From Amoebophrya sp. A120 (lineage: Eukaryota > Protista > Dinoflagellata): a stretch of DNA of 64,000 nt. Below are positions 37,086 to 62,957 of the stretch, piece after piece. The translations under genes were made by a program, and so were the position numbers. Where the stretch lies: NCBI GenBank assembly GCA_905178155.1, contig CAJINV010000001.1:6233860-6297859 (forward strand). Direction: 5' to 3'. Positions within the stretch are counted from its first letter, which is position 1. Each line of letters opens with the position of its first letter. A model generated the notes under the pieces. That model did not search any database, was not told the origin of the DNA, and saw only the letters and a program-made list of their open reading frames with translations.

Positions 37086-37595
37086 GTCGAGCAAGGACCT
37101 AGCTTTCTTGCACTCGAAAGCGAAAAGAGGATCGCAAAACTTGTACAAAATCCATCTAACAACATGATGTAAAGTTTTTTTCGAAGCGAGCCCGAACCTG
37201 TGTCGCTGAAGGGCTTTTTTGCAACACCCTGCTGACCTGTTTCTGTGCTGCTGGTTGTATGATTTATTGTTTGTGCAGCAACATGATGAAGTATCAAGTC
37301 GAGCGTCTGGTTGCGCTAGCTCGCATTTGTCACACCGCGCACACCTGCCGAATTTTGTTTTTTGTGTGTAGCTGTTCGCCGTCGAAGTTTTCTTCTAGTT
37401 CATTGTCCAGTCGTCAACGTCATCCTGCCCCTGCATGCTATGTATTTTTCGGTGTCTACTGCTTGTGGTGTTTCTATCGGGAGATAAGGAAGAGTAAGTT
37501 TTTTTGGAACAGGTCGAGCGTTCTTCGTGGATCCAATTTGATGTCTTGCAAAGAAACTGAGTGGATTCTGAACTCCGCCCATCAATTTGTCCAGG

Positions 37596-39569
37596 ATGCG
37601 AAGGAAAACGCCTCGTGGCGTTTTGTTCCCCAGTTACTTGTGGTTGCTTCTGCTCAATTACGGTTCGACACTCTACTTCGGGGCGAAGGCAGCAAGAACA
37701 CCGCCTCAAGGGGCGATAAGTATCTCATCCGGCAGCACGACAAAGGATAAGGAGCAGGAAAATGATGTCGGCGTCATCAGCGAAAATGCAATCGCCTCAT
37801 CTTCACGACCGCGACAGACGTCCGAGACACTCTTCAAGTCGATCCCCCTGAAAGACGTGCAGGATGTCCAGTTGCAAGTCGAGGTTGGAATAGGCCAGCC
37901 AGCACAGAAGTTTAGTCTGGTACTGGACACCGGCTCCTCCGATGCTTGGGTGTTCGCGAAAAATTTCACCGTTCCGGCCAGCGTGGAGAGCACCGCGCTT
38001 GCCGTCGAACCGAGGACCTTCGACATTGCCACTTCAAAAACTGCCAAGCCGTGGTGGCATGATATACGGACAGTAGAAGAAAATCATGGAGCTGTATCTT
38101 CTACTGAAGGAACGGATGCGCACGCCTCGAGAAAAGCCGCGTTCACCAGAACGCCCACCCGTGTGGAGTTTCGCTATGGCGACGGTAGTCGTGTGGAAGC
38201 TTTCGCTTTCACGGACACGCTGGCGTTGGAAACGACGGACGTACTTTCCGCTGCTACGAGCCTGGTCGTCCCGAACCAATTTCTCCTTGCGGCGGATAAA
38301 ATGACGAACCGAAACATAGGCCACGCGATGCACGCCGACGGGGTTCTGGGGCTCGCGCACTACTTCGAGGACGTGATCGGGCCCCGACCGCGCTCGGCCA
38401 AAACGTTCATTCACGCGCTGTTTGACCAATACCCAGACCTGGATCGGCAGTTCAGCCTCTACCTGCAGCCAGACGCCAGTCTGGACGAGAAGGTGAGTAG
38501 TACTAGTGTCCTTGCAGATGAGGCAGAGACCGACGAAAGAAGCACAGGGAGGTCGTTGTCTTTGACATCAGCTACAGCTTCAAAAGCAACGGTCAAGACC
38601 ACGACCACGAGCAAGAAATCCCAGCTCTTCTTCGGAAAAGTCCCACTTGCGGAAGTGTTCCAAGCCGAGGCGAAGGGCCACGACGTGGAAAAACTGATGC
38701 GATTCGGGCGGAAGTACTACATGGACCGCACGGACCTGTGGATTACCTCCATCTGGTCGCTGGGGTGGAATGCGCAACCGGCGTACACGTTCACAGGAGG
38801 TGGGGAGGTCGGCGCGCCCGCCCTGATCGATTCAGGTTCGAGCTTTCTCGTCGTCTCCAGCACGGTGTTCGACTCGTTGTTCGCGAGTAAACTCGACGGA
38901 GCACCTTTTGCGTTAACCTCGACGTCGGGGACAACTTCTTCCGACAACACGCCGACCCTCCAACACGCAACACCAATAGCAGGAAAAAACCACCACCACC
39001 AGCCTCCCCCGCTTAACCTGCATTGTGAGCCCTACCCCGGGAAGGACAGTCTCCGGATTTGCGACTGCCCGGCAGACGACGCCGAGAAAAAGCAGCTCCC
39101 CGCCCTCGTCGCGAACCTCGTCGACCACGAGGACCAGCTGCTACCGCTCTGCCTCGCGCCCGACGAGTACTTGGTGAAGACAAACCACCCCGTCACGGGC
39201 GAGCCGAAGTGCGTGCCGGCGGTGGAGCGCGGCTCCTCGACGCAAGCGGTGCCGGTCATCATCGGCTTGGTGTTTCTGCGCACTTTCTTCACGCGTTTCG
39301 ACTTGGATCGGCACCAAATAGGTTTCACGCGCATCCGGAATCACGATCTGGCCGCGCCGTGGTGCGGTCCAATACCCGCGGAGGGCGTAGCGGAAAGTTG
39401 GGTCGATTATTTCCTCTCCGCGTACTTCTCCGAGCAGGTTGTCTACTTAACCGCAGGGGTTTTATGCGGCGGAGCGATGTTTGCAGTCGCGAATCTCGTG
39501 CACAAAAAGTGGTGGCGGGCCAGGCAAGGAGGGGCCGCTGCGTCCTCACCGGCATTGCTGTTGGAGTGA
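37596..39569 (+). CDS. Membrane-anchored pepsin-family (A1) aspartic protease
   Basis: N-terminal hydrophobic segment; LVLDTGSSDAWV, flap YGDG, DGVLGLA, ALIDSGSS, IIGLVFLR; C-terminal TM; intronless. Confidence 0.93.
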   Translation: MRRKTPRGVLFPSYLWLLLLNYGSTLYFGAKAARTPPQGAISISSGSTTKDKEQENDVGVISENAIASSSRPRQTSETLFKSIPLKDVQDVQLQVEVGIGQPAQKFSLVLDTGSSDAWVFAKNFTVPASVESTALAVEPRTFDIATSKTAKPWWHDIRTVEENHGAVSSTEGTDAHASRKAAFTRTPTRVEFRYGDGSRVEAFAFTDTLALETTDVLSAATSLVVPNQFLLAADKMTNRNIGHAMHADGVLGLAHYFEDVIGPRPRSAKTFIHALFDQYPDLDRQFSLYLQPDASLDEKVSSTSVLADEAETDERSTGRSLSLTSATASKATVKTTTTSKKSQLFFGKVPLAEVFQAEAKGHDVEKLMRFGRKYYMDRTDLWITSIWSLGWNAQPAYTFTGGGEVGAPALIDSGSSFLVVSSTVFDSLFASKLDGAPFALTSTSGTTSSDNTPTLQHATPIAGKNHHHQPPPLNLHCEPYPGKDSLRICDCPADDAEKKQLPALVANLVDHEDQLLPLCLAPDEYLVKTNHPVTGEPKCVPAVERGSSTQAVPVIIGLVFLRTFFTRFDLDRHQIGFTRIRNHDLAAPWCGPIPAEGVAESWVDYFLSAYFSEQVVYLTAGVLCGGAMFAVANLVHKKWWRARQGGAAASSPALLLE

Positions 39570-40022
39570 GACGTAGACGTTGGGCGGTGAGCTTGACGGG
39601 ATGAACTTGCTGCAGATTCATTTTTAATCGTTTCATCATGCTGCAAAGACTTTTACCACCAGAATCAAGCTTGCTTCTTACGCATCAACGATGTGTCAAC
39701 ATGTTGAAGATCCAAAGTAGCTGCGACAGAGGTGGCGAACCGGACTGGCCTCCTGGTAGCGGAAAAAAATGTTCCGGTCTGGGGCCATGAAGAAAAACGG
39801 CAACCACCAGATTTCGGTTTGCAGCAAGAACATTATTTCACTCATCATCTACTTCATCTGCTATGCAGCAGCACTTTCACGGTGTGTACATTCTGTTCGG
39901 TTGTTGGTGTGTATAGTCATCAAGATGTCGTGAGATTCATTTTTTGGTCACCGCCTAGAAGAGGGTCTAGGGCTACCTAGTTGAAATCCGTGGTCGTCCT
40001 CCTCCAGTGAAAAGAAAAGAAG

Positions 40023-43000
40023 ATGGCGCGGCCTTTCTGGCGTATGTTGCTTTATCATGCTCTTGCTCTCTGCATCTATTTCTCCGCCGGTGGAGATGCA
40101 GGTGAGACTCATAGTGTTACGGAAGAGAGAACACCGGCGCAATTCACGTCAACGTTTCGACCGCAGGCCACCGCTAGGGTGCCGGCGTCCTCTGCTGCAG
40201 CACCAAGAACAGTTCCGAGCAGTCGAAAGGCTGAGGACTCATCGACGACGAAAGAAGCCATCGCTCGAGCGCAAGAGCCACTAGGTGTAGATGTAAATGA
40301 AGAAGAAGCTCCTGCGCAAGAACACCAACAGCGACAGCACCTTCGAGCGCCGCCGTCCAGCACCAGCACTTCTTCGCCTGCTGGTACTACACCATCATCA
40401 GCTCCCCCACCACCTCCCAACAAGAACATCCGCTTAAAAAGTTTTGCCGGTCTGCACCCGCACATGCACGAGTTCATGGATTTTTCGGACGAGTACGGGC
40501 GACAACGCATTTTTCGCGGCACGAACTTGGTGATCAAAGGTCCGCCCTACCTTCCCTACCGCGAAGGGTTCGACCGAGAGGTTTCCTTGGTCAAAAGAGA
40601 CTACGAATTGATGAAGAAATCCGGCTTGAACCTCATCCGCCTCGGCGTGATGTGGGTGGGCGCCCAGCCAATCGACCGAAGTAGCTGGAACGAGACCTAC
40701 TTTTCTCAAACGGCGGAACTGATCGACGAAGCGAAGGAACACGGCATTTTCGTCCTCGCCGATATGCATCAGGACTGCTACGCCGAGGCTTTTTGCGGCG
40801 AGGGCATGCCGGCCTGGGCTTCGAAAACAAACCACTACGAGTTGGAAGATACTGTTGCAAAAAATCGCAATAGTGGAAATATCATCGAAAAGACACTCTC
40901 CAGCGTCGAGAACCAAGTCAATAAAAACATCTTCACGGATTACCTCGACAAGTTTCCCCGTCCCGTCTACCCCGAATTCACGGAGTTTCAGAATTTCACC
41001 AATCCCTTCTACTTCAACGGAGTGATTCCCTACCGCAAGGACTGCGGCGCCCTGGACAACCATTTGGGGAATGTGCAGGCCTCGTACGCCGCGGAGGCGA
41101 CCGGACAGGCCTTTCAAAACCTGTACCAAAACGGAGACGGATTGACGGACGCGTGGGCGGCATTCTTCAAAAAAGTGACGGAAATCACGAAGCCACGAGA
41201 CAACGTGCTAGGTACTTCTTCAGCTTTCTCGATCCGCCCGAAAACGAAGAGAATGAAATTCCAAGTCCAACCCTAGTAATGTGGCTTTCCGTTTCCTCGT
41301 GTTTTTTTCCTGGTGCTCTGGAACACTTATCTCTTTTCTTTTTTGTTCTGGGTTTTGCCTACACCCTCCCTCTTCTATTCATCCAGGTCTTGAGCTTCTG
41401 AACGAGCCGTTCGCGGGGAACATTTACACGAATCCGATGCTCGCCATCCCCCGGTTCGCCGACGCCTGGAACCTGCAGCCGGCGTACGACGTCGTCGCGA
41501 AAGCGATCCGGGAGGTGGACGAGGAGGAGCTGATTTTTTTTGCCGGCGTCACCTGGGCCGACATGGGAGACCACGTAACCTACAACGGGTTCAGCCATCC
41601 ACCGGGAGGGCATGGCTACAAGGTATGATCACGAATTCCCGTCGATCCCACATAATTGCTTCTTCGCATAAAGGTAGAGCCGTAGCCTCGCACAGGGTGA
41701 GCTTTCCCAGCATGTCAAAAGCGAATGCATCATGTTCATTCGCAACTTTATCACTATCAGGATCGCAGTGTAATGGCGTACCACTACTACATGCCTCCGC
41801 AAGAGACGAACTCCAGCGCCAACTACTACCACAACTGGGTGGTGCCCAACGCGGAGCGGCTCGGCACGGCGCAGATGATGACGGAGTTCGACCGGGGCAC
41901 TCCAGAACAGGACTTCCAGCAGTTCGAGCGGGTGGGCGTCAGCTGGGCGTGGTGGGAATGGAAAAGCTACTGCAAGAACACGGAAAGCTCCAAAGACGAT
42001 CCCTCGCAGTTTGCCGCCTGGGGAAGCTGCAAAACCGGGTACGGGGGCGTGTTTCCGGTACTATAATTGGCTCATGTATAAAAAAAAAATGCCGCGTCCA
42101 GAGCGGTTCCAAGTAGTAGTTATGGCGCAGCCCCCTTCAGTTTTTTCTACTCCTACAGCAGATAGACAATCACCCACATTCGAATGGTCGATGTTGTCAT
42201 GACAAAACCCAACCCAAAAACAAATATCACCAACAGCCCGACAACGACAAGCCGGTCCTCGGGCTGTACAGCAAGCTGGTTCGGATGTACCCGCAGGCGA
42301 TTCAGGGCGTCTTCATCCAGAGTTTTTACAACGTCACCAATTTTCAGCTGGATTTCGAGTTCACGCTGGATCCGGAGATCTGCGCGCCGACGGAGCTGTA
42401 CATCGGTTCCGTGTACGACACGGGTGAGTACAGTGCGGTGGAGGTGAAAAAGACTCTCCCGCATGTCTACGACAGTGCCTTTTTCCACCGAAAAACCGAT
42501 AAACGGGAAGAAAATAAGGACAGACAGATCGAGGAAAGGCTAGTGGACGCGATCTTCGAGAACGAGGATGTGTTCCGCATGCCGTTGGATGTAGTTCACG
42601 AGAACCTCGTCAACTCAGAGGCAGGACAACGACCCGATGCATCACAACGAGAAACAGGAAGTACAGAAACTGAAACGAGCCGACCGAAAGCATCAACAAC
42701 CACGGCAGGCGAGCTGGTGGTGCATGTTTCACCGCAGGGGGCGTTGAAAAACGAGGGCGTGAAGGATTTGATCCTTTCCCTGCGTGCAGCAGACGGCGTT
42801 CCGAAGAACACAATCGTGAAAATGAGAATTCAAAGACGGTTTTTCGTGGATAAGAAGGAAATCGACGAAAGTACAGCGGCGCAGGAGTTGATGCAAGATG
42901 CAGTGCTCTTGTCGACTGCACCTGGACCGAGCTCGTCTTTCATGAAAGCAACGTCATCGAGGGCTCGACACCACGACGACCAAGGAAACTCTTTAACGAG

Positions 43001-43277
43001 TCGAGCTCCGCAACGGGAACAGGTGCTATCGCCAGACTTCTTCAAACCGTCTAGGCCGACTGCATTGGACCGGCAGAAACTGCGCGACGTTCTCACGGAT
43101 GAAGCCTGGCGATTCTTTCGTCAAGCAGCGCGAGACGAGAGGTTTCCCCCGGTGCTAAGAGAAAACCATGATATGCCCACCACGGCGAGTGAGCGCCTGT
43201 GGGACGCTACTAATATTCTGGGTACTAAAGGGACGACACCGCCGTCGGCGGAATACGAGCTTGAGGTTTACAATTAG
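40023..43277 (+). CDS. Secreted GH5 endoglycoceramidase-like glycoside hydrolase
   Basis: Signal peptide; GRQRIFRGTNLVIKGPP, NLIRLGVMW, DMHQD, acid/base LLNEP, YHYY, nucleophile MTEF, WAWWEWK, RMYPQAIQG. GT-AG introns 41212-41386, 41623-41760, 42058-42236. Confidence 0.9.
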
Positions 43278-47472: not shown

Positions 47473-49898
47473 AGAAGATATTAGTGACTATCACGTAATC
47501 GCTTTGGCTTTCCCGACGCCGACGAGAGTACTCCAAGTATGTGCTGATCAATCGGCCGGCTTTTCTACAGCGAGTGACTCACATCGTTCTTCAACTTGAC
47601 ATTAGAGACAAGTGCAAGTCGAGAGAATGAAATAAAAAGATATTTATAAGAATATAAAAACGCTCGGTCCGCCTCCGCCCGGCTCGTGTTCGGACACCGA
47701 CATCACCATCAGCGGCAGTTGCTTTCTTGTCTGTGGAATGCCAACGAAACCGAAGCTCAAAATCGTGAGCAGAAATATGAATCACCGAAGCTCGTCGAGA
47801 TCGAAGTCGAACGTGAGCAGAAATGTGGTGAAGAGAAATATGAATGCGTACAGATTTCAGATTCGTTCTAGTAGACGAGGAGTCGAGGTGTGCAGGTTCA
47901 ATCTTTCTAATATAGTATAGAGTCTCGTGGCCCAATCTATCTTTCTCAGGTCATTCGATGTGTCGTCCTACTTCGAGTTTCATTTTGCGCCATGGCTGTT
48001 CCTTCTTTCGGTAAAACTTCGGTTTGGATTTTCATTTCTAGTCACGCTAACGTTAATGTTAGAACTTGTGCGTTTCAACTTACCTAGACTTAGTTCATGA
48101 GCTACAACATCGTTCTGAATAGAAGTAACAAACAAATTCGTTGATAGTCGTTGAACTGTGTCCACCGGGTTTGCAGAGAAATATTGTGCTATTCTTTTAG
48201 AGCAAAGCAAAGATTAGAATTTTGATCGTATGGGGAGGGCTAGCTGAGCAGGATAGAGAATCTCGATTTCGATATCTGTTTGCGTATCGCGGTTTTACAG
48301 CGTTAGCGCTCGTTGTTCGATTGGCTAAAGCAACACACAAAACCAAACAGATTCCACAGTTGGGGCAAAGGATGGGGTAGTGGAGTAGGTAGCTTAGATG
48401 TCCACTGCGCCCTGATGCCCCAACAGACTCAACGACGTTCTCTATCTGTTACTAGCTTGGTTCTTTTTTGGCGGGGTTTTAAATAAGAAGGGCAACGATA
48501 AAGATGTCGCTAGTGCGTGACTCCTAATGTTCAAGAAGGCCTTTTTACGTTGTGAAGTACTTCTTTACAAATGGACCCAAAATAGGAGACCTAAGGTTCG
48601 GGCGTGAATTTCTTCACCCAGCTTCTGCTCCCTTCCTTGAGTTGCTGCGGTGTTGAAGTTTATGCCTATGCTCGACTGCGCGGGAGGGTTTTTGCCTTAC
48701 CCCTCTAAGGTCTCGGGGATCACGCTGCCACACTGTCACCAAACCCACGCCGACACTGCCAAACAGACTTTTTGATATAGAATAAAAGAGCCACAAAGAA
48801 GCATACTGCAGGGGGAAGGGAAAAGGCTTGCAGCTACCCAAAAAGCGCGGCCAAACATATCAGAGGGCTTGCCTGGGGGTAGTTTCTGCACAAGTGCCGC
48901 GCTTGTGTATTTATATCGCAGTAATGAAGTAGAAGAGCATGGGCACGATGGTCAGCAATTGCCCCCTTCTCTGCCTTCCTCCTGTAGCAATACTTCCAAA
49001 AAGAGCCGACGCACAGCCAACATTCCGACGCGCCCAGCCATGCATGTCGTGGCACTTGGAGGCCCCAAAGATTGCTTCTTCAAAACTCACAAGTGTGAGT
49101 TGAGATTTCCCGACCTTTAGGCTTAGCGTTTTAGGCGTGTGGGGCGGGTCAGTGGGCCACTAGGAGGAACAGGCACAGAAACACCACCAAAAAATGGAAG
49201 AGCAGCGTAGCGCAAGCGATGTTGCACTACTATGGTCGTCGCCTCATTTGCGCAGCATACGAGCAGGCAACCTGGTGGTGTGACTCACTGCCTACTGACC
49301 GATGTGAACAACTGTAACATCGTCGCGAGGAGAAGGGACGAGCAGTCTGGAGCCGCAAGGCAAAGGGGTCAGATGGCATTTACGAACCACGAATACGATG
49401 CCGCGATAGAACAAGGACGACGAGCCTGGATCATCTCTTTTTCCGATCTGAAGTTGTCTATGTGATATTTCGCTGCGTTATCTTTGTGATTTGTATTTAA
49501 AAAAAAAAAAAAATCTTTCTAACATTTTTTCGCCTCGACTTTGTTTGTGGGCAGTTCTGTTCACTGGTGATTGGCACTGAAAATAGATTCGTCACACCAT
49601 GATCTGCAGCTAGTACACTGATTGGTTTTTGTGGACCGTGACCCCGCGCCAATGCCATTGTTGATGAGTAAAGATACAGGATGCGCCCGCGTCATCGTAC
49701 AAGAGTCGCTATGTATGGGCCTCAGCAGGTGGTGCAGTTCGTTGGGAAGTTGTGCTCTCGTTTAAGTTTCTGGCTCTACCAAATAATGGTGAGCTGACAC
49801 AAATAACTAGGTGCTGTGATAGATAAAAGACACCACTACACTCCGCAATATCTCACTCCTACCAAGCTACGCTTGTTTTACGATTTTGATCGAGCAAC

Positions 49899-53357: not shown

Positions 53358-54093
53358 CACGGCTGGAAGGCCACGCAGGTGCGACGTGACCGCCGCATCT
53401 CTATTGATGAAATTTCGATGAAGATTTGAATTAGGTTCTTATGCTTACGCAAGAATGCACGACAGCACGGACACTCTGTATGATTACGACCGAAAATCGT
53501 GGGCAGGGAGGTCGAAAGGAGCTGCGCGCCTACAGCGTTTCCAGTCGAAAGGAGCTGCGCGAGTAGCTAGGTCGCGGTCGTGCTGCAAACCCGTGATTGG
53601 TTACCCGGCGCAAGGTTTTCTTTAAAGACGTCGTACCCGGCACGGAAGTACGACGAGAGCAGTGTTCGCAAAGTTCCCTACGTATTTTGTCGAGGATCAT
53701 CGTGCACGTGCTTTTTGCAAATCTTCAAGACGTGTGTCAACTGCTGCCAGGAGCTCCTTGTTCATAATTCATAAGATGATCAAGATCTTTCTGTGTTTGT
53801 TTTGAGGAAGATCAAGCACGAGATCAGACACGGCGAAACTGACTGGACGAGTTGATCAGCAGACGTAAGAATGCAGTGGCCTCCTGCTTTACTTGAGGGC
53901 ATTTGCTATATCTATGTGTGAGATGAGTCACAGGCTGCGGCTCCAGATTTAGGTACTAAAAAAGCGTAGCTTAACAAGCGCTACGTGTGGAGATCTTGTT
54001 GCGCAAAGCAAGTGCTGCATGTCGGGGGAAGAACAAAATTCGAATTTGTTTCTGTTCTCGTCGTTCCAGCCCATTTGAAATAGGCGTAAAAGC

Positions 54094-55335
54094 ATGGCCC
54101 AACAGATGAGCAGCACCTCGAGCATGGACTGTGTCCTAAACCTGCGGCCTCCGCTCGTCGCGGGCCCAGATTTCGTTTCCGTCATACAGGAGCTCTACGG
54201 TGCAGACGAGTACGGCAGTTTGGTCTTCGAAAAGTGTCTGCCCTCCGAACGCGACCGCAATTACCTGTATCGCAAAAGGGACCACTCGAGCGGAGCAAGT
54301 GGCAGTCGTGTGGTGTTCAAGATTTCCAACCAGGGGGACTCCTTACAGTTGCTGTCGGCGCAAACGCAAGTAATTTTGCATTGCGGGAATGCAGGAGCGC
54401 CGGTGCAGCGTGTGCTTTCGAAAATAAAGGCACAAGAAAGCGATATGGCTGCGACTTCGACCACAAAAGCGGCCCACGCTTGTTTTCCCCACCAGGACTA
54501 CCTGACTCCACTGTTGCTTGAAAAAGACACTGTGGCGATTGCAACGAAAGAGAACAATGCAACTCGTTCTGATTCATCAGCACCGCCAGCCGGTACCGCA
54601 AGAAATACGTTCTGGGCCCGGCTCTTGACTTTCGTAGAAGGAGACGTTTTGTCCGCGGTACCGCCGACGACAGAGATCTGGAAGGAGGCAGGCCGTGCCG
54701 TGGCTCGCGTATCGGATAGCCTCTGCGATTTCTACCAGAAGTGCAAAGATATGAATGATGTTGCAGCGGAGCTGCATGATGGAGGCAAAAACACGACCTT
54801 TCAGTGGTGGAGCAGGCTGAATGAGGACTTCGAGTGGAACTTGCTCACCTACGAGAGGACGATAACGAAGTACCTCCCCTCCATCACAGATGAGGCAAAG
54901 CGTAAATTTGTCGAGAACCTAGTACAACAGCACGGTAAAAGATGGCGACAACGACCTGAACTAGTCCTCGCGCACGGGGACCCCAATGACAACAACCTTG
55001 TCGTCACACGCGAGGGCGAGGTGGTTGTTCTCGATTTCGGGGATTTGTGCGCTTCGTTTCCCTTCGCGGACGCGTCTGTAGGGGCTGCGTACGCACCAAG
55101 CGAGGAGTGTGCAAAAGCGTTTGTCAACGGGTGTATGGAAAAATCTACGTCGTTGACAAAAGAGAATGATCCAGATATGATCGAGGAGAGGATCCACGCT
55201 TGGGCCAAAATACGACGTGCGACCAGTGTGTGTATTAGCAGCTACCAAGCACAGCAGCATCCGGACGACGAATATCTGCAGTGTTCCGCAGATCAAATGT
55301 GGAGGACACTCGGGTTTCAGAGCGAAGGAAAATGA
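54094..55335 (+). CDS. APH/choline-kinase-fold phosphotransferase, hydroxylysine-kinase-like
   Basis: LPSERDRNY, VFKISN, RLLTFVEG, EWNL, Brenner-type HGDPNDNN, LDFGD; intronless. Confidence 0.85.
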   Translation: MAQQMSSTSSMDCVLNLRPPLVAGPDFVSVIQELYGADEYGSLVFEKCLPSERDRNYLYRKRDHSSGASGSRVVFKISNQGDSLQLLSAQTQVILHCGNAGAPVQRVLSKIKAQESDMAATSTTKAAHACFPHQDYLTPLLLEKDTVAIATKENNATRSDSSAPPAGTARNTFWARLLTFVEGDVLSAVPPTTEIWKEAGRAVARVSDSLCDFYQKCKDMNDVAAELHDGGKNTTFQWWSRLNEDFEWNLLTYERTITKYLPSITDEAKRKFVENLVQQHGKRWRQRPELVLAHGDPNDNNLVVTREGEVVVLDFGDLCASFPFADASVGAAYAPSEECAKAFVNGCMEKSTSLTKENDPDMIEERIHAWAKIRRATSVCISSYQAQQHPDDEYLQCSADQMWRTLGFQSEGK

Positions 55336-56401
55336 TTTGTTGATTTATTTTACATCCACGGAAGCACAACTACGATGATATGGAAACACGAAACAAGCAA
55401 ACAAGCTCACGTGTTAAGCGAAAACACAAAAAACTGCCCTCTGACTCCTGTGTAGGAATGGCTCACTTTGATAACGCCAAGAGATGTAAAAAACGTACGA
55501 AGACGAGGGCTCGAGGCGGCGATTCTTGCTCCGCGAATTACACAGGCTCGACTTGGCCGCGATCAAAGACTGAGCCGAGCCGCTCTCTTTGCTCGTCGTA
55601 CTTTTTCAACCCGCCACAGGCTGGGCCTGTGTTTCTTGTAGTGGCTATGGTTGAGAAACCAGGAGAGTGGTGGATCCATTCGCGTGAAACTTCTATGTCG
55701 AGAAACTACAATGAGCGCGAAACGAACATGGTTCCGGAGTTTTTTGAGAAGTAAGGATCGCCTCAGAAATATGACCGCGATCGGTAATATTCAGTCGTTG
55801 CGTTCCTCGTACATCTACATGAGTTTTATCGTCAAAGAGATTGACTCAGCAACTTGTTGCAGTCTCTGCGAGCAGTTTTGCTTTGACTGCGACCATTAGA
55901 AGATGCCTGCAAAAAAAAATTTAGCAAGTAGTGCTAAAAGTAAAAAGGGCGATCATAAAAGTAAAACAAAGAACAACAATAAGAAAAAGAATAATCTTAA
56001 TCCCGACGTGCTATTGCTAAGAGGAAACAACGCCAAAAGAAATGAAGGAGCTCAGCGAGGCCTGCCAAAGAGCGGCTTAGAGCAATGCATACGCAAAGAT
56101 TATTCCAGCAACTGACTTGAACAATTACAATTTATTCTGCTTTTCGTCTGTGACGGTGTTATTTTTTCAAATTTAATGTCCATGAATACGTCTATCCGTA
56201 TCTTTTCGTTTTCTCATTGAGATTTTTTTCAAAATAAAAGCTGAGCTCGAAGTTTGAGTTTCCTATTTTCCGATACGGGCCGGGCGTCTTCTGTTTTTCC
56301 TACAGGTGGATACTTGTGTAGAGTAGCTGCCTTGTACTTGTTCACCACGGACCGCTCGTTTCTGTGATTGACCCCGCCGATCCCCCCGAACCGCTTCCGC
56401 G

Positions 56402-59400
56402 ATGCCGGAGTTGTTGAAAAGCGAGGTTGGTGTCGAAACCACTGCACAACCAGCAAAACCAAAGGAGCCGGCAGCTGAAGAAATCCAGAAGTCCTCGCCC
56501 CCAGCTGCAGTCACGACAAAAGCAGAGGCTGCTGCCGAAGCACTTGCTGGCGAAGCTACCACTGCAGTCGAGGCGGAGCTGCAGAATAAGCCGTCGTCGT
56601 CGTCAACATCCGGCAATGTTGTGGAGGCCCACGCAGAGGTTCTGGATCAGAAGCAGGAGTTGTTGCAGAAGAATCAAAAAGAGGACATCGCATCAGGAGC
56701 TGCGCGAGAAGATGATCATCCAACGAAACAAGTGAAAATGGACGGGGACACCAAGGACAACGGAAATGGTCAAGAACAAGCTCCACCCGCGAAGCGACCA
56801 AGAGGCAGACCAAAGAAATCTGCTCTGCCGCAACACCAGGAAGGAGGAAATAAGGCAGGAGCACCGGACAAAGCAGCCGCGGCTCCCAAAAAGCCTTCCA
56901 AAATGAAACAAGCTAAAAGTAGCGCAGGATCAAAAAACAAATCCGGCGACGCAGCAGCTGATCCTGACATCGAGATGAAGGGCGAGGTAAATGAAAATCA
57001 AGACAACGATGAACAGGCGGACGTCACGAACAAAGACAACAAAAATCGGGAGGTTTTCATGAAGCCCGCCGGCGATGGCGACTCATCCTCGGACGACGAC
57101 GAGAAGCGTGTGGTGAACGGCGGAGAGGAGGCTGGTCGGCTCTCTCGAGTGGAGGAACGACCGCCCGCCAAGGCACTCCCGAGAAACGAAGACAAGTGGA
57201 ACACGTTGAAGAGTGTGGCGGAGAAAGCGCAGGACTGCCTCGACCGAGAGAACTACAAAGACTTGGAGGCGTATTTTCTGGAATTGTGGAAACAGGGCAA
57301 GCAGGACGAGATGTGGGGTTTCTGCGAAACACTGCTGGAAAAGCACAAACACACCTTCCCCGTTTCCGCAGCGAGAAACAATGTCTATGAAAGCTCCAAG
57401 AAGGAAACGGAAAAGTCAAAAGCGCGGACCTTCTACAACTTAGGGCTAGTCAATCACCGGCCGGTGGGGAAATTAGCGGCCGAGATGGAAAATAAACCGG
57501 CGAAGGAACTGGTATAAATGCAAGCAGGTTGCTGCTTCTGTTGATGTTGATCAAAGTTTTTTTTTGTTGTTGACGTGTCGCAATCTTCATTGAGACCACA
57601 ACCACCTCGTTCTATGATGCCCCTGCGCTCTTGGTCATTTCATCTTGTTCCCATTCTCATCTTCAGGCGATCGCCCTCAACGCTGCAATGACGGTCTGCA
57701 GACTCGCGGGCGACGAGAAAGAAAGCGGTGAAAAGCTGTTTTGGCACAGCGGAATAACGTTGAATCTCAATGGCACCACCCGCGTGCATTGTGACAAAGG
57801 CAATCTCGGAAGAAGCCGGGCGGCCGCGTTTGGGACTTTTATCGGTGGCGAGACGCTGATATACGATCCAGAGGGCACCCAATGGATGAACGTAAAAGAC
57901 CGCCGAAGCCTGGCCTGCGTCCGAGAACGGGGATGGAACGCGTGGAAGCACGGGCTGGAGCCACTAGTGCTGCGGATCAAAGGTATTAAATTTGTAACGG
58001 GTTGGTCTTTTGCTTTTTCGTGGTCAGCCCGCGTGGAGCGGCCCTTGCTCTTCATACATTCGTGAATGCGCGCACTGCTGGGCGTGCCGGCGCAAGGCGC
58101 AGAAGTGTCGTTGCTTGGTGTTCTCATGCAAGTTGTGCTCCAATGTGGATGTCAATCTAATGGAGTCGAAAACTTTTCATGACAGGAACCGAAGAAGTGA
58201 TAACCGCGGACCGCGAATGGTTGTCAACAGACGCGGGAAATTCCCTCTACAAATCTGAAATACAAATGCCGTTTCGGCGTGCCGTCGTATTTCATAATGC
58301 CCCGGATTTCGAAGGACCGCTGCCGCATTGTACTGCGCCCGCGTTTCCTCCGTGCTGGGCAGAGGACGGCGAAAACCGCCCGGAGGCGTTGCGGGGGCTG
58401 AAGCTGTTCGGCGAAGACATGGACGCGGATGACCTCGACCGAGTCATCAAGTTCTGCGCCGACAACCAGGACGAAATGGTCAAACTCGGCTACACCAGAT
58501 ACGTAGCAGTGTCCTACCCACACCAATGCGCGACCACGTTCCGCATCGCAAAGGGCTCCCCCGAGGCCGCGGCTACCTACGGCTTCGCGCGGCTGTGCGA
58601 CCCGCGCTACGAGGCTAGCAGGGTGAAGCTGGAAAGTCTCTTTCGCGAAGAGATTACGAGGGACGGCGCGGGCAAAATTTCGCTGAAAGAGCTGGGAATC
58701 GCGGGGCTTGCTGGCGAGTGGAAGGGCGGCAAGGAAAATTTGAAACCGGACTCAGTGAAAGACAAGGAGAAGGAGATACGGGAAACCACGGAAAAGAAGA
58801 TCGCGGAGGAATTGAAATTGGAGCCGGAGGCGGTGCGGAAACTGTTAGCAGACACTACCAAAGATTACACGTGGAAGTACGTGGAGAACCGCAGTGACAC
58901 GTGCCCCGTACTGCTGCTCGACGACCTGCTGATCGAGTGGGGTATCGAAGACGCAATCAAGGAAGAACGAAGGGAGCGGATTAAAAAGCGGGAGGAAAAG
59001 TTGAAGGAAAAGGAGGAAAACAAGGACCCGAAAGCGAAAGTCACCGTGCCAGCGGCACCAAAGGACGAGCTCGCGTACGTGGTCGGCGTAAAAAGAACGC
59101 TCAGGGAAATGCTGAGAACGTTTGAGGGCAGGGTATAAAAGTTTCGCTTTTCATGGGGTTTTTACATATCGGAATTGGTGTTGCAGTAAAGGTTTTGTAT
59201 ATTGCTTCTCCAAAAAGAAAAGAAATGCTTTTGGGTTTGTGCCATAGCCTGCAACCCCAGCTACAGAAGCAGAAGCCTTTGAAATCTTCTAACAGTGCTT
59301 CTCGCTACCACCACAAGTAGAAGAGTGAGTCACTGCGACTGGTGGCTCACTGTCAATAGCGACGCCTTTACGACCGGTGGCTCATTGTCAATATTGACCG

Positions 59401-60499
59401 GTCGTGGTGCACTGTCAATGCGGTGGCTCACTGTCAACAGCGGATCCTGCGCAAATGAGTGATAGTTGGTTCTTCGTTCTCAACATACAAATAATACAAT
59501 GCTAAATTACAATAACTACAGACCATCCCCGAGTTTGCTTCTGGGAACAACCCCGGCTACATTCCGTGGCGCGATTACCCACCCAAGTGGTGGTGGCGAA
59601 AAGGGACGGACTTGAGCGCGGTCAAGGCCATGTATGTGAACCACTACAACAAGACGCAAGTCGTCACGGCTGGCGCAGCACCAAACCCCACCATCGTCGG
59701 CCGGCTGCGGGACTGCAGTGCCTGGAACGCCACGGAGAAAGGGCAGACGGGCGCGCGACTGCAGATCGAACAAAAATTCAACGAAAATGTCGAATCGAAG
59801 GAGACGGCGGCGGAAATCAAATTGCGCGAAGAACTGCAGAAACTCAAACGAGAACGGCGTGGGAAGCCCGAAGCAAATAACGCAGAGGAGACGAAGAAAC
59901 TGCAGGAGGGCGGCGAGCTTGCCGACGGAGAAGCGGAGCAAGCTAATCCACCAGCCAAGAAAGCCAGAAAAATGGCAACTGCTTCCATGAAGAAGGTGAA
60001 GGCGACAGTTGCGGGGGGAGAGAGCAAAAAGGATGCTGCTGAGCAAGACGTCGAGATGCGCGATGTAGTTGCACAGCAGGACGGTATGGGCGAGCAGAAT
60101 CCAGACGAGAGCGCGAATAACGTTGGGGCCGCTGACCGAAAGGATGTTGAAGCTCCTACTGGCGGTTCGTCAGCATCATCCTCTTCGTCAAGTTCATCTT
60201 CATCATCCAGCAATACAAAGCAAGCCACATCCTCGAAGGATTCGTCTGTGTGTGGAGTGGGCGACGCGGAAAGAAAAGGCAAAAATTCTGAAAAAGACGC
60301 CGCGAAGCCGAAAAAAAAAGCAAAGAAGAACCAGGATCCACCGGAAGGGTGGTACCAGCCGACCCTGTTCGAGTGCTTTGCGAAATCGAAACCCAATCCT
60401 TCATCTGTCGATCCCAGTCACAAATCTGAAGAGAAAAACAATCCGTCCGACGCCGATCACCACAACAAGAAGGCCGATGCTTCTCTACTCGAGTCCTAG
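56402..60499 (+). CDS. AT-hook + TET/JBP-like 2OG-Fe(II) dioxygenase with C-terminal PIP-box-like motif
   Basis: Four ORFs join in frame via GT-AG introns 57512-57666, 57983-58185, 59133-59521. AT-hook KRPRGRPKK; HCDKGN..GTFIGG (HxD 57787-57795); distal PHCT (His 58326); RYVAVSY (Arg 58497); QPTLFECF (60356-60379). Confidence 0.75.
59341..59438. repeat. Four imperfect direct repeats inside an intron
   Basis: GGTGGCTCACTGTCAA-like units at 59341, 59376, 59404, 59422. Confidence 0.85.
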
Positions 60500-61365
60500 G
60501 TAGGATTTTGCGCAGCTTCTCTCCGGAGCCGCATGCTTACTGCGGTCAACGAGCGGGAACGTGAGGCCTGAAAGTCCCATTGCTATAGTGAAATTGTATA
60601 TTGAGTTTTTTTTTCTATGTTTTGCTTTCAAGAACCAACTAATTCAACTCTCAAAATCACCATGTAGTTCTTGACGTCAACATCTAGCACGCAGTTCTTG
60701 ATGTGCAAATTCCGCACATCGACCGCAGCTCAACATCATTTCTGTCGCGCTGGCGAACCAACGCAGAATTTCCCTTGCGCAAAAAACTGTAGAGTCACGA
60801 TTATTTGACTGCTTGAGCAGGTTGAATCTGAAAGGTGGCGCTGAACGCCAATACTGCAGCACATGCCAGAGCGCCGGTCCCGCAGTACTTTTGGAAGGTG
60901 GAAAATGACTTTTTGCTTCTGGCCACCGATTCCCCTGTTCCTATCGTATCTGCGTCTGAGTAATAAAACAAAGAATGACCCGCAAGGTTTACGATATTTT
61001 GACCGGCTAGCTAGTTCTAGCTGCTAGTGTGCGAAGAATGTTGACGAGGAGTGAAGGCAGAATCACATGAAGTCGGAAAGACGAGTGATGATCATGAGTG
61101 AGGCTGCAGTGTAGCGAAAACAAAAGACAAGAGCGAACACCTGCTGCGTCGAATAGGCGTTTCCTGTATGGAGTGCTCTATTCAGTTCTCTCCATGATTC
61201 CTGCCCTTCGACCCACCTTCAATTGAGGCTACCCGTAAGAAACAAGGGCAGTGAGGATTATGATTATCGGTAGTACGGATAAGTAATTATCCGAGCCTGT
61301 GACGGTTGCGTCACCTTGCTTCTTCATCTTCATTTCGTTGTAACCTCGCTACGTCGACATTTATC

Positions 61366-62957
61366 ATGTCGGGTTGTTGCGCGGGGCAGATCAACAAAGA
61401 GACGCAGGACCTGTGCGACTTTTCCGGGTGGACGGCCAGAAGCCAGAATGAGTTCTACGATGTGTGGCGCTTGCGGCTGAAGCCGATGCAGGGAAAGACC
61501 GCCTTGATTACCGGCGCCACCACCGGCATCGGCCGGAAGCTGGCGGAGGAGTTCTCCCGGTTGGGAGCTACCGTGATTATGTTGAACCGGCCCTCGGAGC
61601 GCGCGGACACAGCCCTCGCGGAAGTTTCCAAAATCGCTGCGCTTGCCGGAGAAACCTCTGGCTCGAAAATGGCCGCTGGAGTGCATCATGTCGACTGCGA
61701 CCTGCAAGAGTTGGAGTCCGTTCGGGCAGCCGCTGAACGAGTGGTGCAGCAATTGGCTGGGTCAGGGTCAGAATTGAAGGGCATTGACTATTTGATGCTC
61801 AACGCGGGTTTGATGCTCACGGAGGATAGAGCCACACCGGACGGGTTCGATATACAAATGCAGGTACTTACGGGCGTATTTCTTCATCAATTTTCGCAGC
61901 CAGATTTTCAATAGAAGCAGACATCTGCTTTCTATTTGTTCGTGAGGATTCAGACTAGAAGGAGAGAGTCCTTTTTCTGAGGCGGGGTCGCGGTCGTGCT
62001 ATTGGTGGGGCCTTGATGTTGATGGAAACTTGCAATCACAGTGATAATTTTACCATTTTACAACTATCACCATAAAAAAATCGAGCAGCTACCCATTCAG
62101 GCGATAATGAGACTGAGAGGTCGTAAAAGGGAATTCTAAGCAGGCGAAAACGCCGAACAGAATAAATTCATGATCACCATAAAAAAATGCAGGTGAACCA
62201 CCTTTCTCAGTTCCTGTTGACCAAGTTGGTTTGGAATCTGGTGGAACTTGCGGCCACGACGCGCGGCGACTGCCGTGTCATCACAAATACTTCCACTGCC
62301 TACCTGTGGTCGTCCTGCAAAATTTTGAGCCCCTGGCCCTGCTTTAGCAAGACCATTCGTCCCAAGTACATGCAGAAAAATGGCGGGAAGCTAGGCGGGA
62401 ACTTCGGTTTGCCGCTGGCCCCGTTGGGACCGCGGATGTACCGCTATGCGCAATCCAAGCTGGCCAACATCGTTTTTACTGCGGCGCTGGACGACCGCGT
62501 GCGCAAAAGCGCGGTGGTTGGAGCTGGTGTTGGAGTGGACGGCGCAGACAAGAAAGCAGAGGGAGGCCCGAATCCGAAAATTCGCTGCATCACAGTGATG
62601 CCGGGAGTCTGCATGGAGACGGAGTTGCTTGCCGCGTCGAAAAGGGGTAAGGGGGGCGGGATGCGGGAGCACTCCAAGTTTCTGTTCAACCTCGGCGGGC
62701 ACGGAATCAAGACTGCCACTATATGCATGTTGATGGCGGTTGTGCATCCGGATATCGAGAGTGGCAGTCTCGTTGAACCGAAATACTGGCACAAGCTGCT
62801 TATGATGGGTTTCGGCCGCAACCATACCCACGGGCCGCCCATGGTGCCGGCGCGGAAGGCGGAGGCGCCGCATTTCATGACGGCGGAAAAAAACAAGGAA
62901 CTGCTTTGGAGCTGCAGTTTGGAAGCCGTCGGCGAAAAAGAATTTGACATTGCATAG
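61366..62957 (+). CDS. Short-chain dehydrogenase/reductase (retinol dehydrogenase/WWOX-like)
   Basis: TGATTGIG, CDLQEL, LNAG, DGFDIQMQVNHLSQFLLT, YAQSKLAN. GT-AG intron 61864-62192. Confidence 0.92.

Follow-up and report, generated by a model that had tools for sequence, protein, structure and literature searches.

Gene structure and transcription

The DNA analysed here, referred to below as the window, is a 64,000-nucleotide stretch of the genome of the dinoflagellate Amoebophrya sp. A120 (GenBank GCA_905178155.1, contig CAJINV010000001.1, forward-strand positions 6,233,860 to 6,297,859). At 56402-60499 it carries a four-exon gene whose product, judging from the predicted fold of its family, is very probably a DNA-base oxidase related to the TET and JBP dioxygenases. 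The original prediction had proposed a protein split over four open reading frames (ORFs), and these do join in frame at GT-AG introns, giving a coding sequence of 3,351 nucleotides, or 1,116 codons and a stop (Table 1). A single 4,093-nucleotide contig from run X3 spans 55947-60786 with zero mismatches and omits exactly the three introns, which confirms the joints and places all four exons on one transcript. Contigs from runs X4, X5 and X6 have the identical three joints, and neighbouring genes are spliced in them too. Runs X3 to X6 represent one sample from one study, their status as RNA is a guess of the search tool, and being contigs they give neither level nor stage of expression; run X1 contains the unspliced DNA of the gene and may be the source of the window. 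Among runs recorded as RNA none was listed as containing the gene, and no read of the raw-read RNA runs X9, X10 and X11 aligned to it, which carries no weight either way. The gene is thus real, transcribed and spliced. In the spliced product the motifs named beforehand fall where they had been placed, with NLGLV at residues 346-350, HCD at 411-413, H-C-T at 523-525, R580-x5-Y586, KRPRGRP at 131-137 and QPTLFECF at 1070-1077.

Table 1 Features of the dioxygenase gene, in window positions (UTR, untranslated region)
Feature	Position	Strand	Details
5' leader, transcribed, ~470 nucleotides	55933..56401	+	contig starts at 55933-55947; upstream ATGs at 56042, 56085, 56176, 56182
Exon 1, residues 1-370	56402..57511	+	low-complexity N-terminal arm, then first dioxygenase helices with invariant R325, G348, R353
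AT-hook-like motif KRPRGRPKK, residues 131-139	56792..56818	+	PF02178 E 0.064, 13.6 bits (cut-off 17.4)
Intron 1	57512..57666	+	GT-AG, 155 nucleotides
Exon 2	57667..57982	+	T401, N403, H411 and D413 (putative iron ligands, 57787-57795), N416, conserved GxFxGG hairpin
Intron 2	57983..58185	+	GT-AG, 203 nucleotides
Exon 3	58186..59132	+	H523 (58326-58328) as putative distal iron ligand; helical insertion
Exon 3, later part		+	last strand R580-V584-Y586-H588 (58497-58523), then start of second conserved folded region
Intron 3	59133..59521	+	GT-AG, 389 nucleotides
Exon 4	59522..60499	+	second folded region ends at about residue 905; disordered tail after it
PIP-like motif Y-QPTLFECF, residues 1069-1077	60353..60379	+	39 residues before the C-terminus
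3' UTR, transcribed	60500..60859	+	contig ends at 60786-60859

Some minor features of the transcript are recorded here. An acceptor-like CTACAG lies near 56300 in the leader and is skipped by the contigs, and a truncated spliced-leader motif, taken as a 12-mer, was not found in the window. Intron 3 contains, read by eye, about four degenerate copies of a 16-nucleotide unit (GGTGGCTCACTGTCAA-like) at 59341-59438.

Protein family and phylogeny

A search with exon 2 returned one relative, whose cluster includes P0003, a full-length protein from Amoebophrya sp. AT5.2 that is 47% identical to the window protein over 901 columns. A shallow profile of two genes, P0003 and the exons of the window, was run against 1.84 billion proteins and retrieved 18 at E<=0.001. 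We discarded P0019, a repeat artefact, and likewise did not count P0002 (a frameshifted version of the P0003 gene) or P0001 and P0012 (fragments of it). All of the relatives with names, eight of the ten in the first look-up, are from Amoebophrya (A120, A25, AT5.2). The family hits include four proteins of A120, three of AT5.2 and two of A25, and none of the named proteins among the 18 is from a core dinoflagellate. Identity among the relatives ranges from 22 to 59%. Trees of the long proteins separate three paralogue groups, none of them confined to a single strain, and pair the window protein with P0003 (support 99/99) inside a five-member clade (100/99).

Beyond Amoebophrya, GenBank phages (three weak matches, E 1-4), viral contigs (0 of 35 pattern matches) and prokaryote genomes (0 of 68) yielded no relative; among the 592 matches listed for metagenome contigs there was at least one relative. 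Exon 3 matched nothing among the 7,994 candidates scored from longer proteins. The gene model of P0010, an AT5.2 paralogue, lacks the HxD segment, through mis-modelling of an exon or because the copy is dead. P0016, a distant member, is encoded on a eukaryote-like metagenome contig (L001:5896-8721), downstream of an ORF that is presumably IFT172.

Catalytic residues and predicted fold of the dioxygenase domain

Conservation was counted over 14 alignment rows, with P0017, P0018 and P0020 excluded as short or poorly aligned. H411, D413, T401, N403 and N416 are kept in all 12 rows that cover these positions, H523 and V584 in 14 of 14, R580 and R353 in 13 of 13 and R325 in 10 of 10, while Y586 and H588 are found in 13 of the 14. 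The HxD...H triad of TET/JBP type is therefore present, as are the last-strand Arg assigned to the C5 carboxylate of 2-oxoglutarate and then the R-x5-aromatic pattern, and since these motifs are kept across relatives that are only 22-59% identical, they go beyond chance. We infer that H411, D413 and H523 bind iron. For the Arg that contacts the C1 carboxylate of 2-oxoglutarate (R1261 in human TET2, R224 in NgTET1), conservation by itself offers two invariant candidates, R325 and R353.

The family domain had no dioxygenase match in Pfam, PHROGs or NCBIfam, and its Atlas matches all scored below 0.9 and serve as leads only, one of them (0.82) pointing to a cluster with 27% PF12851 members. The window protein carries two insertions, of 110 residues between D413 and H523 and of 57 residues between H523 and R580; in most members 104-139 residues separate the Asp from the distal His, and 52-81 separate that His from the Arg. 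These two insertions are a likely explanation for the failure of family libraries and of PDB sequence searches.

The fold was modelled on residues 78-449 of P0003, the orthologue of the window protein, from an 18-row alignment (pLDDT 90.9, pTM 0.89). In a Foldseek search of the PDB with this model, the top five rows were human TET2 (E 2.8e-4 to 1.1e-3), followed by ALKBH1 and CMD1. VIA-align, run against 48,161 chains, placed NgTET1 first (Z 10.9, root-mean-square deviation 3.3, 169 residues aligned), with CcTet (Z 9.0), FTO (8.7), TET2 (8.7) and a prolyl hydroxylase (8.3) at lower ranks. A second VIA-align look again gave NgTET1 (Z 11.0), the whole-protein model was in agreement, and the best named viral fold match was a JBP1/TET oxygenase. 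The predicted double-stranded beta-helix is thus closest to TET structures. The TET/JBP-like fold that had been read from motifs is supported by these models, and in neither structure search was a dioxygenase with a non-nucleic-acid substrate the best match.

The same searches bear on two other assignments. First, the protein may be a 2-oxoglutarate dioxygenase of proteins or small molecules, or a non-catalytic chromatin scaffold, its likeness to TET reflecting the shared jelly-roll only. Prolyl hydroxylases at Z 8.0-8.3 and the lack of a TET/JBP match at the sequence level are compatible with such a role, whereas the fully conserved metal ligands argue for catalysis and the TET-pattern pocket, AT-hook-like cores and PIP boxes described below point to DNA. 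We consider this assignment improbable. Second, the enzyme may act on another nucleic-acid base, as a CcTet-like N6-methyladenine (6mA) demethylase, as an AlkB/FTO-like repair enzyme travelling with PCNA or as an RNA modifier. In the second VIA-align look, CcTet in complex with 6mA DNA came fourth (Z 9.7) and FTO was level with TET2 (Z 8.7-8.8). ALKBH1 comes directly after TET2 in Foldseek, and activity on 6mA is reported for the Drosophila TET in spite of a pocket of mammalian type (PMC11804724); in addition, the three paralogue groups may differ in substrate. However, NgTET1 stands about 2 Z units ahead of FTO, and the last strand closes with R-x5-Y-x-H, in keeping with TET. In AlkB enzymes that end of the strand carries a second Arg, which also counts against an AlkB-like enzyme. 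Activity on such a base appears rather unlikely, if somewhat less so than a role away from nucleic acids.

The base pocket and the candidate substrate

In human TET2, T1372, V1900 and Y1902 form a hydrophobic pocket (PMC8256090), and N1387, Y1902 and H1904 read 5-methylcytosine (5mC; PMC11804724). In the window protein, the step from T401 to N416 is 15 residues, the same as from T1372 to N1387, and V584-Y586-H588 matches V1900-Y1902-H1904, these equivalences being drawn from motif spacing without residue-level superposition. On sequence grounds, a pocket with TET2 spacing is stronger evidence than the HxD...H...R signature alone. As to the substrate, it cuts both ways.

One reading of this pocket is a TET-type 5mC oxidase, perhaps working behind the fork as well, whose product in DNA is 5-hydroxymethylcytosine (5hmC) or a later oxidation product. 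The family's invariant Thr, Asn, Val, Tyr and His correspond to the 5mC-reading pocket of human TET2, the best solved matches (TET2, NgTET1 and CcTet) all act on 5mC, and 5hmC of unknown source is also reported from core dinoflagellates (PMC11572971). The structure ranking cannot separate substrates here, because no thymine-specific JBP domain was among the solved structures returned. Against a 5mC oxidase, substrate is reported not to be predictable from pocket residues alone (PMC8256090, PMC11804724), and we found no literature on an Amoebophrya DNMT or on DNA methylation in Amoebophrya. Furthermore, CpG is not depleted, with an observed/expected ratio, itself a weak proxy for methylation, of 1.11 in the window and 1.04 outside its long ORFs, and this is a weak sign against dense CpG methylation. 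Oxidation of 5mC seems to us an unlikely but serious alternative.

Other evidence points to thymine. Asn at the pocket position is reported to double the thymine activity of NgTet1 (PMC4678852), and CryTJ1 of Crypthecodinium cohnii and AmpTJ1 of Amphidinium carterae produce 5-hydroxymethyluracil (5hmU) post-replication (PMC11572971; preprint 10.1101/2023.11.30.569493). Because these two enzymes of core dinoflagellates make 5hmU, lineage favours thymine. By analogy with them, we tentatively assign thymine in DNA as the substrate.

Putative DNA-binding elements

The N-terminal AT-hook that had been predicted is present as an RGRP core at the expected place, with a score under the Pfam cut-off (Table 1) and a position that shifts between relatives. 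Five of the 11 long members have an RGRP core (shuffle p<=0.003 each), two of them in an N-terminal and three in a C-terminal position, and such shifting is consistent with a DNA-binding motif that is mobile.

A second conserved region, at about residues 634-905 (58659-59132 and 59522-59863), has a medium-confidence fold in the orthologue model and carries conserved Gly, Pro, Arg and Trp. It had no Pfam or Atlas match, and every match listed when the whole protein was searched by fold fell on the dioxygenase domain. We consider this region a candidate DNA-binding module.

A C-terminal PIP-like motif in one clade

The tail motif, predicted to be a PCNA-interacting protein (PIP) box of the form QxxLxxFF, departs from that form. 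QPTLFECF is present, with a Cys rather than an aromatic residue at position 7, and does not match the canonical Q-x-x-aliphatic-x-x-aromatic-aromatic. In its clade-mates P0003 (YQPSLAVWF) and P0005 (YQPKLDLFF) the boxes are canonical, 41 and 48 residues from the ends, and tail shuffles for a strict PIP box gave p 0.0006 and p 0.0004, respectively; the window motif reached p 0.0004 with a pattern relaxed after the motif was seen. The common form Y-Q-P-x-L-x-x-x-F, 39-48 residues from the C-terminus, follows a basic stretch (net charge +4 to +6 over the 25 residues upstream) and is found in three of the 11 long members, all in the clade of the window protein. It occurs on both sides of the first split of this clade and was therefore probably ancestral there. 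On the tree as a whole, clustering of the PIP label is not significant (140 of 500 shuffles were as low), and the other two paralogue groups lack the motif. The P0003 tail is predicted to be disordered (pLDDT <50), and tails cannot be aligned across the family. Among confirmed PCNA ligands, 43% are reported to lack one aromatic residue, in a paper that also warns of false positives (PMC6881253). From the conservation of the motif, we consider functional docking on PCNA reasonably likely. Two further tails, of P0016 (the degenerate PIP-like QKTFADFGF) and P0006 (VYSWFK), do not fit the counted pattern.

Proposed mechanism

We propose, tentatively, that the window protein, as an Fe(II)/2-oxoglutarate dioxygenase of TET/JBP type, hydroxylates thymine in DNA at its 5-methyl group, with a PIP-like tail that would bring it to newly copied DNA. 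In this model, R580 and one of R325 and R353 would bind 2-oxoglutarate, while the flipped base would stack on Y586 and be read by N416 and H588. Iron/2-oxoglutarate chemistry would then act on the flipped 5-methylpyrimidine, most likely thymine, to give 5hmU. DNA would be held by the basic tails with their AT-hook-like cores and by the second folded region, and docking of the tail motif on PCNA would allow nascent strands to be re-modified after replication. One paralogue group would thus be brought to nascent DNA by PCNA, with the other groups acting without the clamp. Thymine oxidation and PCNA docking combined in one protein are possible, though we hold the conjunction doubtful. A wider conjecture, which we rate no higher, is that the syndinian parasites, which have no typical dinokaryon, possess a thymine hydroxylase family of their own, whose PIP-box clade serves as a PCNA-wired, DNMT1-like maintenance writer of 5hmU.

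Several points weigh against the proposal. At the level of sequence, PF12851 (Tet_JBP) matched neither the 18 relatives (E<=1) nor the exons (E<=10), and PDB sequence searches were blank or gave chance or low-complexity matches. At the level of structure, TM-scores reach only about 0.3, and NgTET1 leads FTO and the prolyl hydroxylases by a margin that is real but no more than 2-3 Z units. Within the pocket, its equivalences being taken from spacing, the Asn/Tyr/His trio is the set that gives TET2 its preference for 5mC, and JBP1 has Asp where the Amoebophrya family has Asn (PMC11804724). The lineage argument has its own gap: the 5hmU background invoked by the original prediction comes from core dinoflagellates, the named relatives of the gene are from Amoebophrya (Syndiniales), and, according to the 2019 review PMC6723414, 5hmU data for basal dinoflagellates do not exist. 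We found no measurement of 5hmU in Amoebophrya in the literature. As to PCNA, the PIP-like motif is absent from eight of the 11 long members and present in three of the five in the window's own clade, where both A120 copies lack it, and a putative PCNA-binding peptide of mouse Tet1 is reported to have failed to localise to replication sites (PMC9440122).

Comparison with known systems

TET/JBP-type thymine hydroxylases of dinoflagellates have already been published (PMC11572971). CryTJ1 and AmpTJ1 share with the Amoebophrya family the dinoflagellate lineage, the motifs HxD and H...R and the likely reaction. They were found by iterative PF12851 searches, whereas PF12851 gives no direct match to the Amoebophrya family, and CryTJ1, compared here by its published description, is a protein of about 59.5 kDa with an HRD motif, against 1,116 residues and HCD in the window protein. 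The main texts of the CryTJ1 and AmpTJ1 papers do not mention Amoebophrya or PCNA.

NgTET1 of Naegleria (PDB 4lt5, 5cg8), the best structural match (Z 10.9-11.0), has V-x-aromatic-x-H on its last strand in common with the family. It differs in having Asp234 at the Asn position and in being small, without long tails or a second folded region. In the family, in turn, no Arg is conserved at the place of NgTET1 R224, five residues ahead of the HxD His. Human TET2 (PDB 4nm6), the top Foldseek match, has the same spacing of Thr, Asn, Val, Tyr and His and a jelly roll likewise split by insertions. Identity to the family is only about 11-12% (TM about 0.3), the family shows no evident Cys-rich zinc region, and the family insertions are predicted to be folded. 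A PIP consensus is reported as not found in Tet2 or Tet3 (PMC9440122). Kinetoplastid JBP1 and JBP2 and the phage thymine dioxygenases (5mYOX clade C, PMC13229309) share the proposed post-replicative hydroxylation of thymine; unlike these systems, neither the gene nor the 28 other scanned ORFs of the window supply a J-binding, SNF2, ParB or glycosyltransferase partner. Taken together, the family appears to be of TET/JBP type and is set apart by its lineage, by the two insertions, by the additional folded region and by a PIP box that is likely.

In a search of mostly open literature we found no published description of the Amoebophrya family, although the homologue tree of MMETSP sequences in PMC11572971 may include an Amoebophrya sequence; a term search of the main texts of two Amoebophrya genome papers (PMC7789003, PMC12005148) found neither "methyl" nor "dioxygenase". 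The origin of the replacement of much of the thymine by 5hmU in dinoflagellates is an old question, for which PMC6723414 offers no data from basal lineages. The family provides named, expressed candidates in cultured Amoebophrya strains that standard annotation has missed ("unnamed protein product", no Pfam match), and with them a way to test DNA modification in early-branching parasites. If our proposal is true, the 5hmU mark would predate the core dinoflagellates, labour would be split between fork-coupled and free paralogues, and the PIP box, if it works, would offer a direct mechanism by which the mark is renewed after replication. Should the substrate instead be 5mC, the family would suggest that Amoebophrya-type parasites have a system of cytosine modification not reported so far.

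Neighbouring loci

The gene is flanked upstream by an APH-family phosphotransferase (54079-55335; PF01636, E 3.4e-15) and downstream by a spliced short-chain dehydrogenase (61369-62957; PF00106, E 2.7e-13; 329-nucleotide intron), neither with an evident link to DNA modification. Further upstream, 37572-43277 holds an aspartyl protease (PF00026) and a split gene for a glycoside hydrolase of family 5 (PF00150, PF18564). At 49300-49520 a number of contigs have loose ends or diverge, a pattern that suggests a repeat with further copies in the genome.

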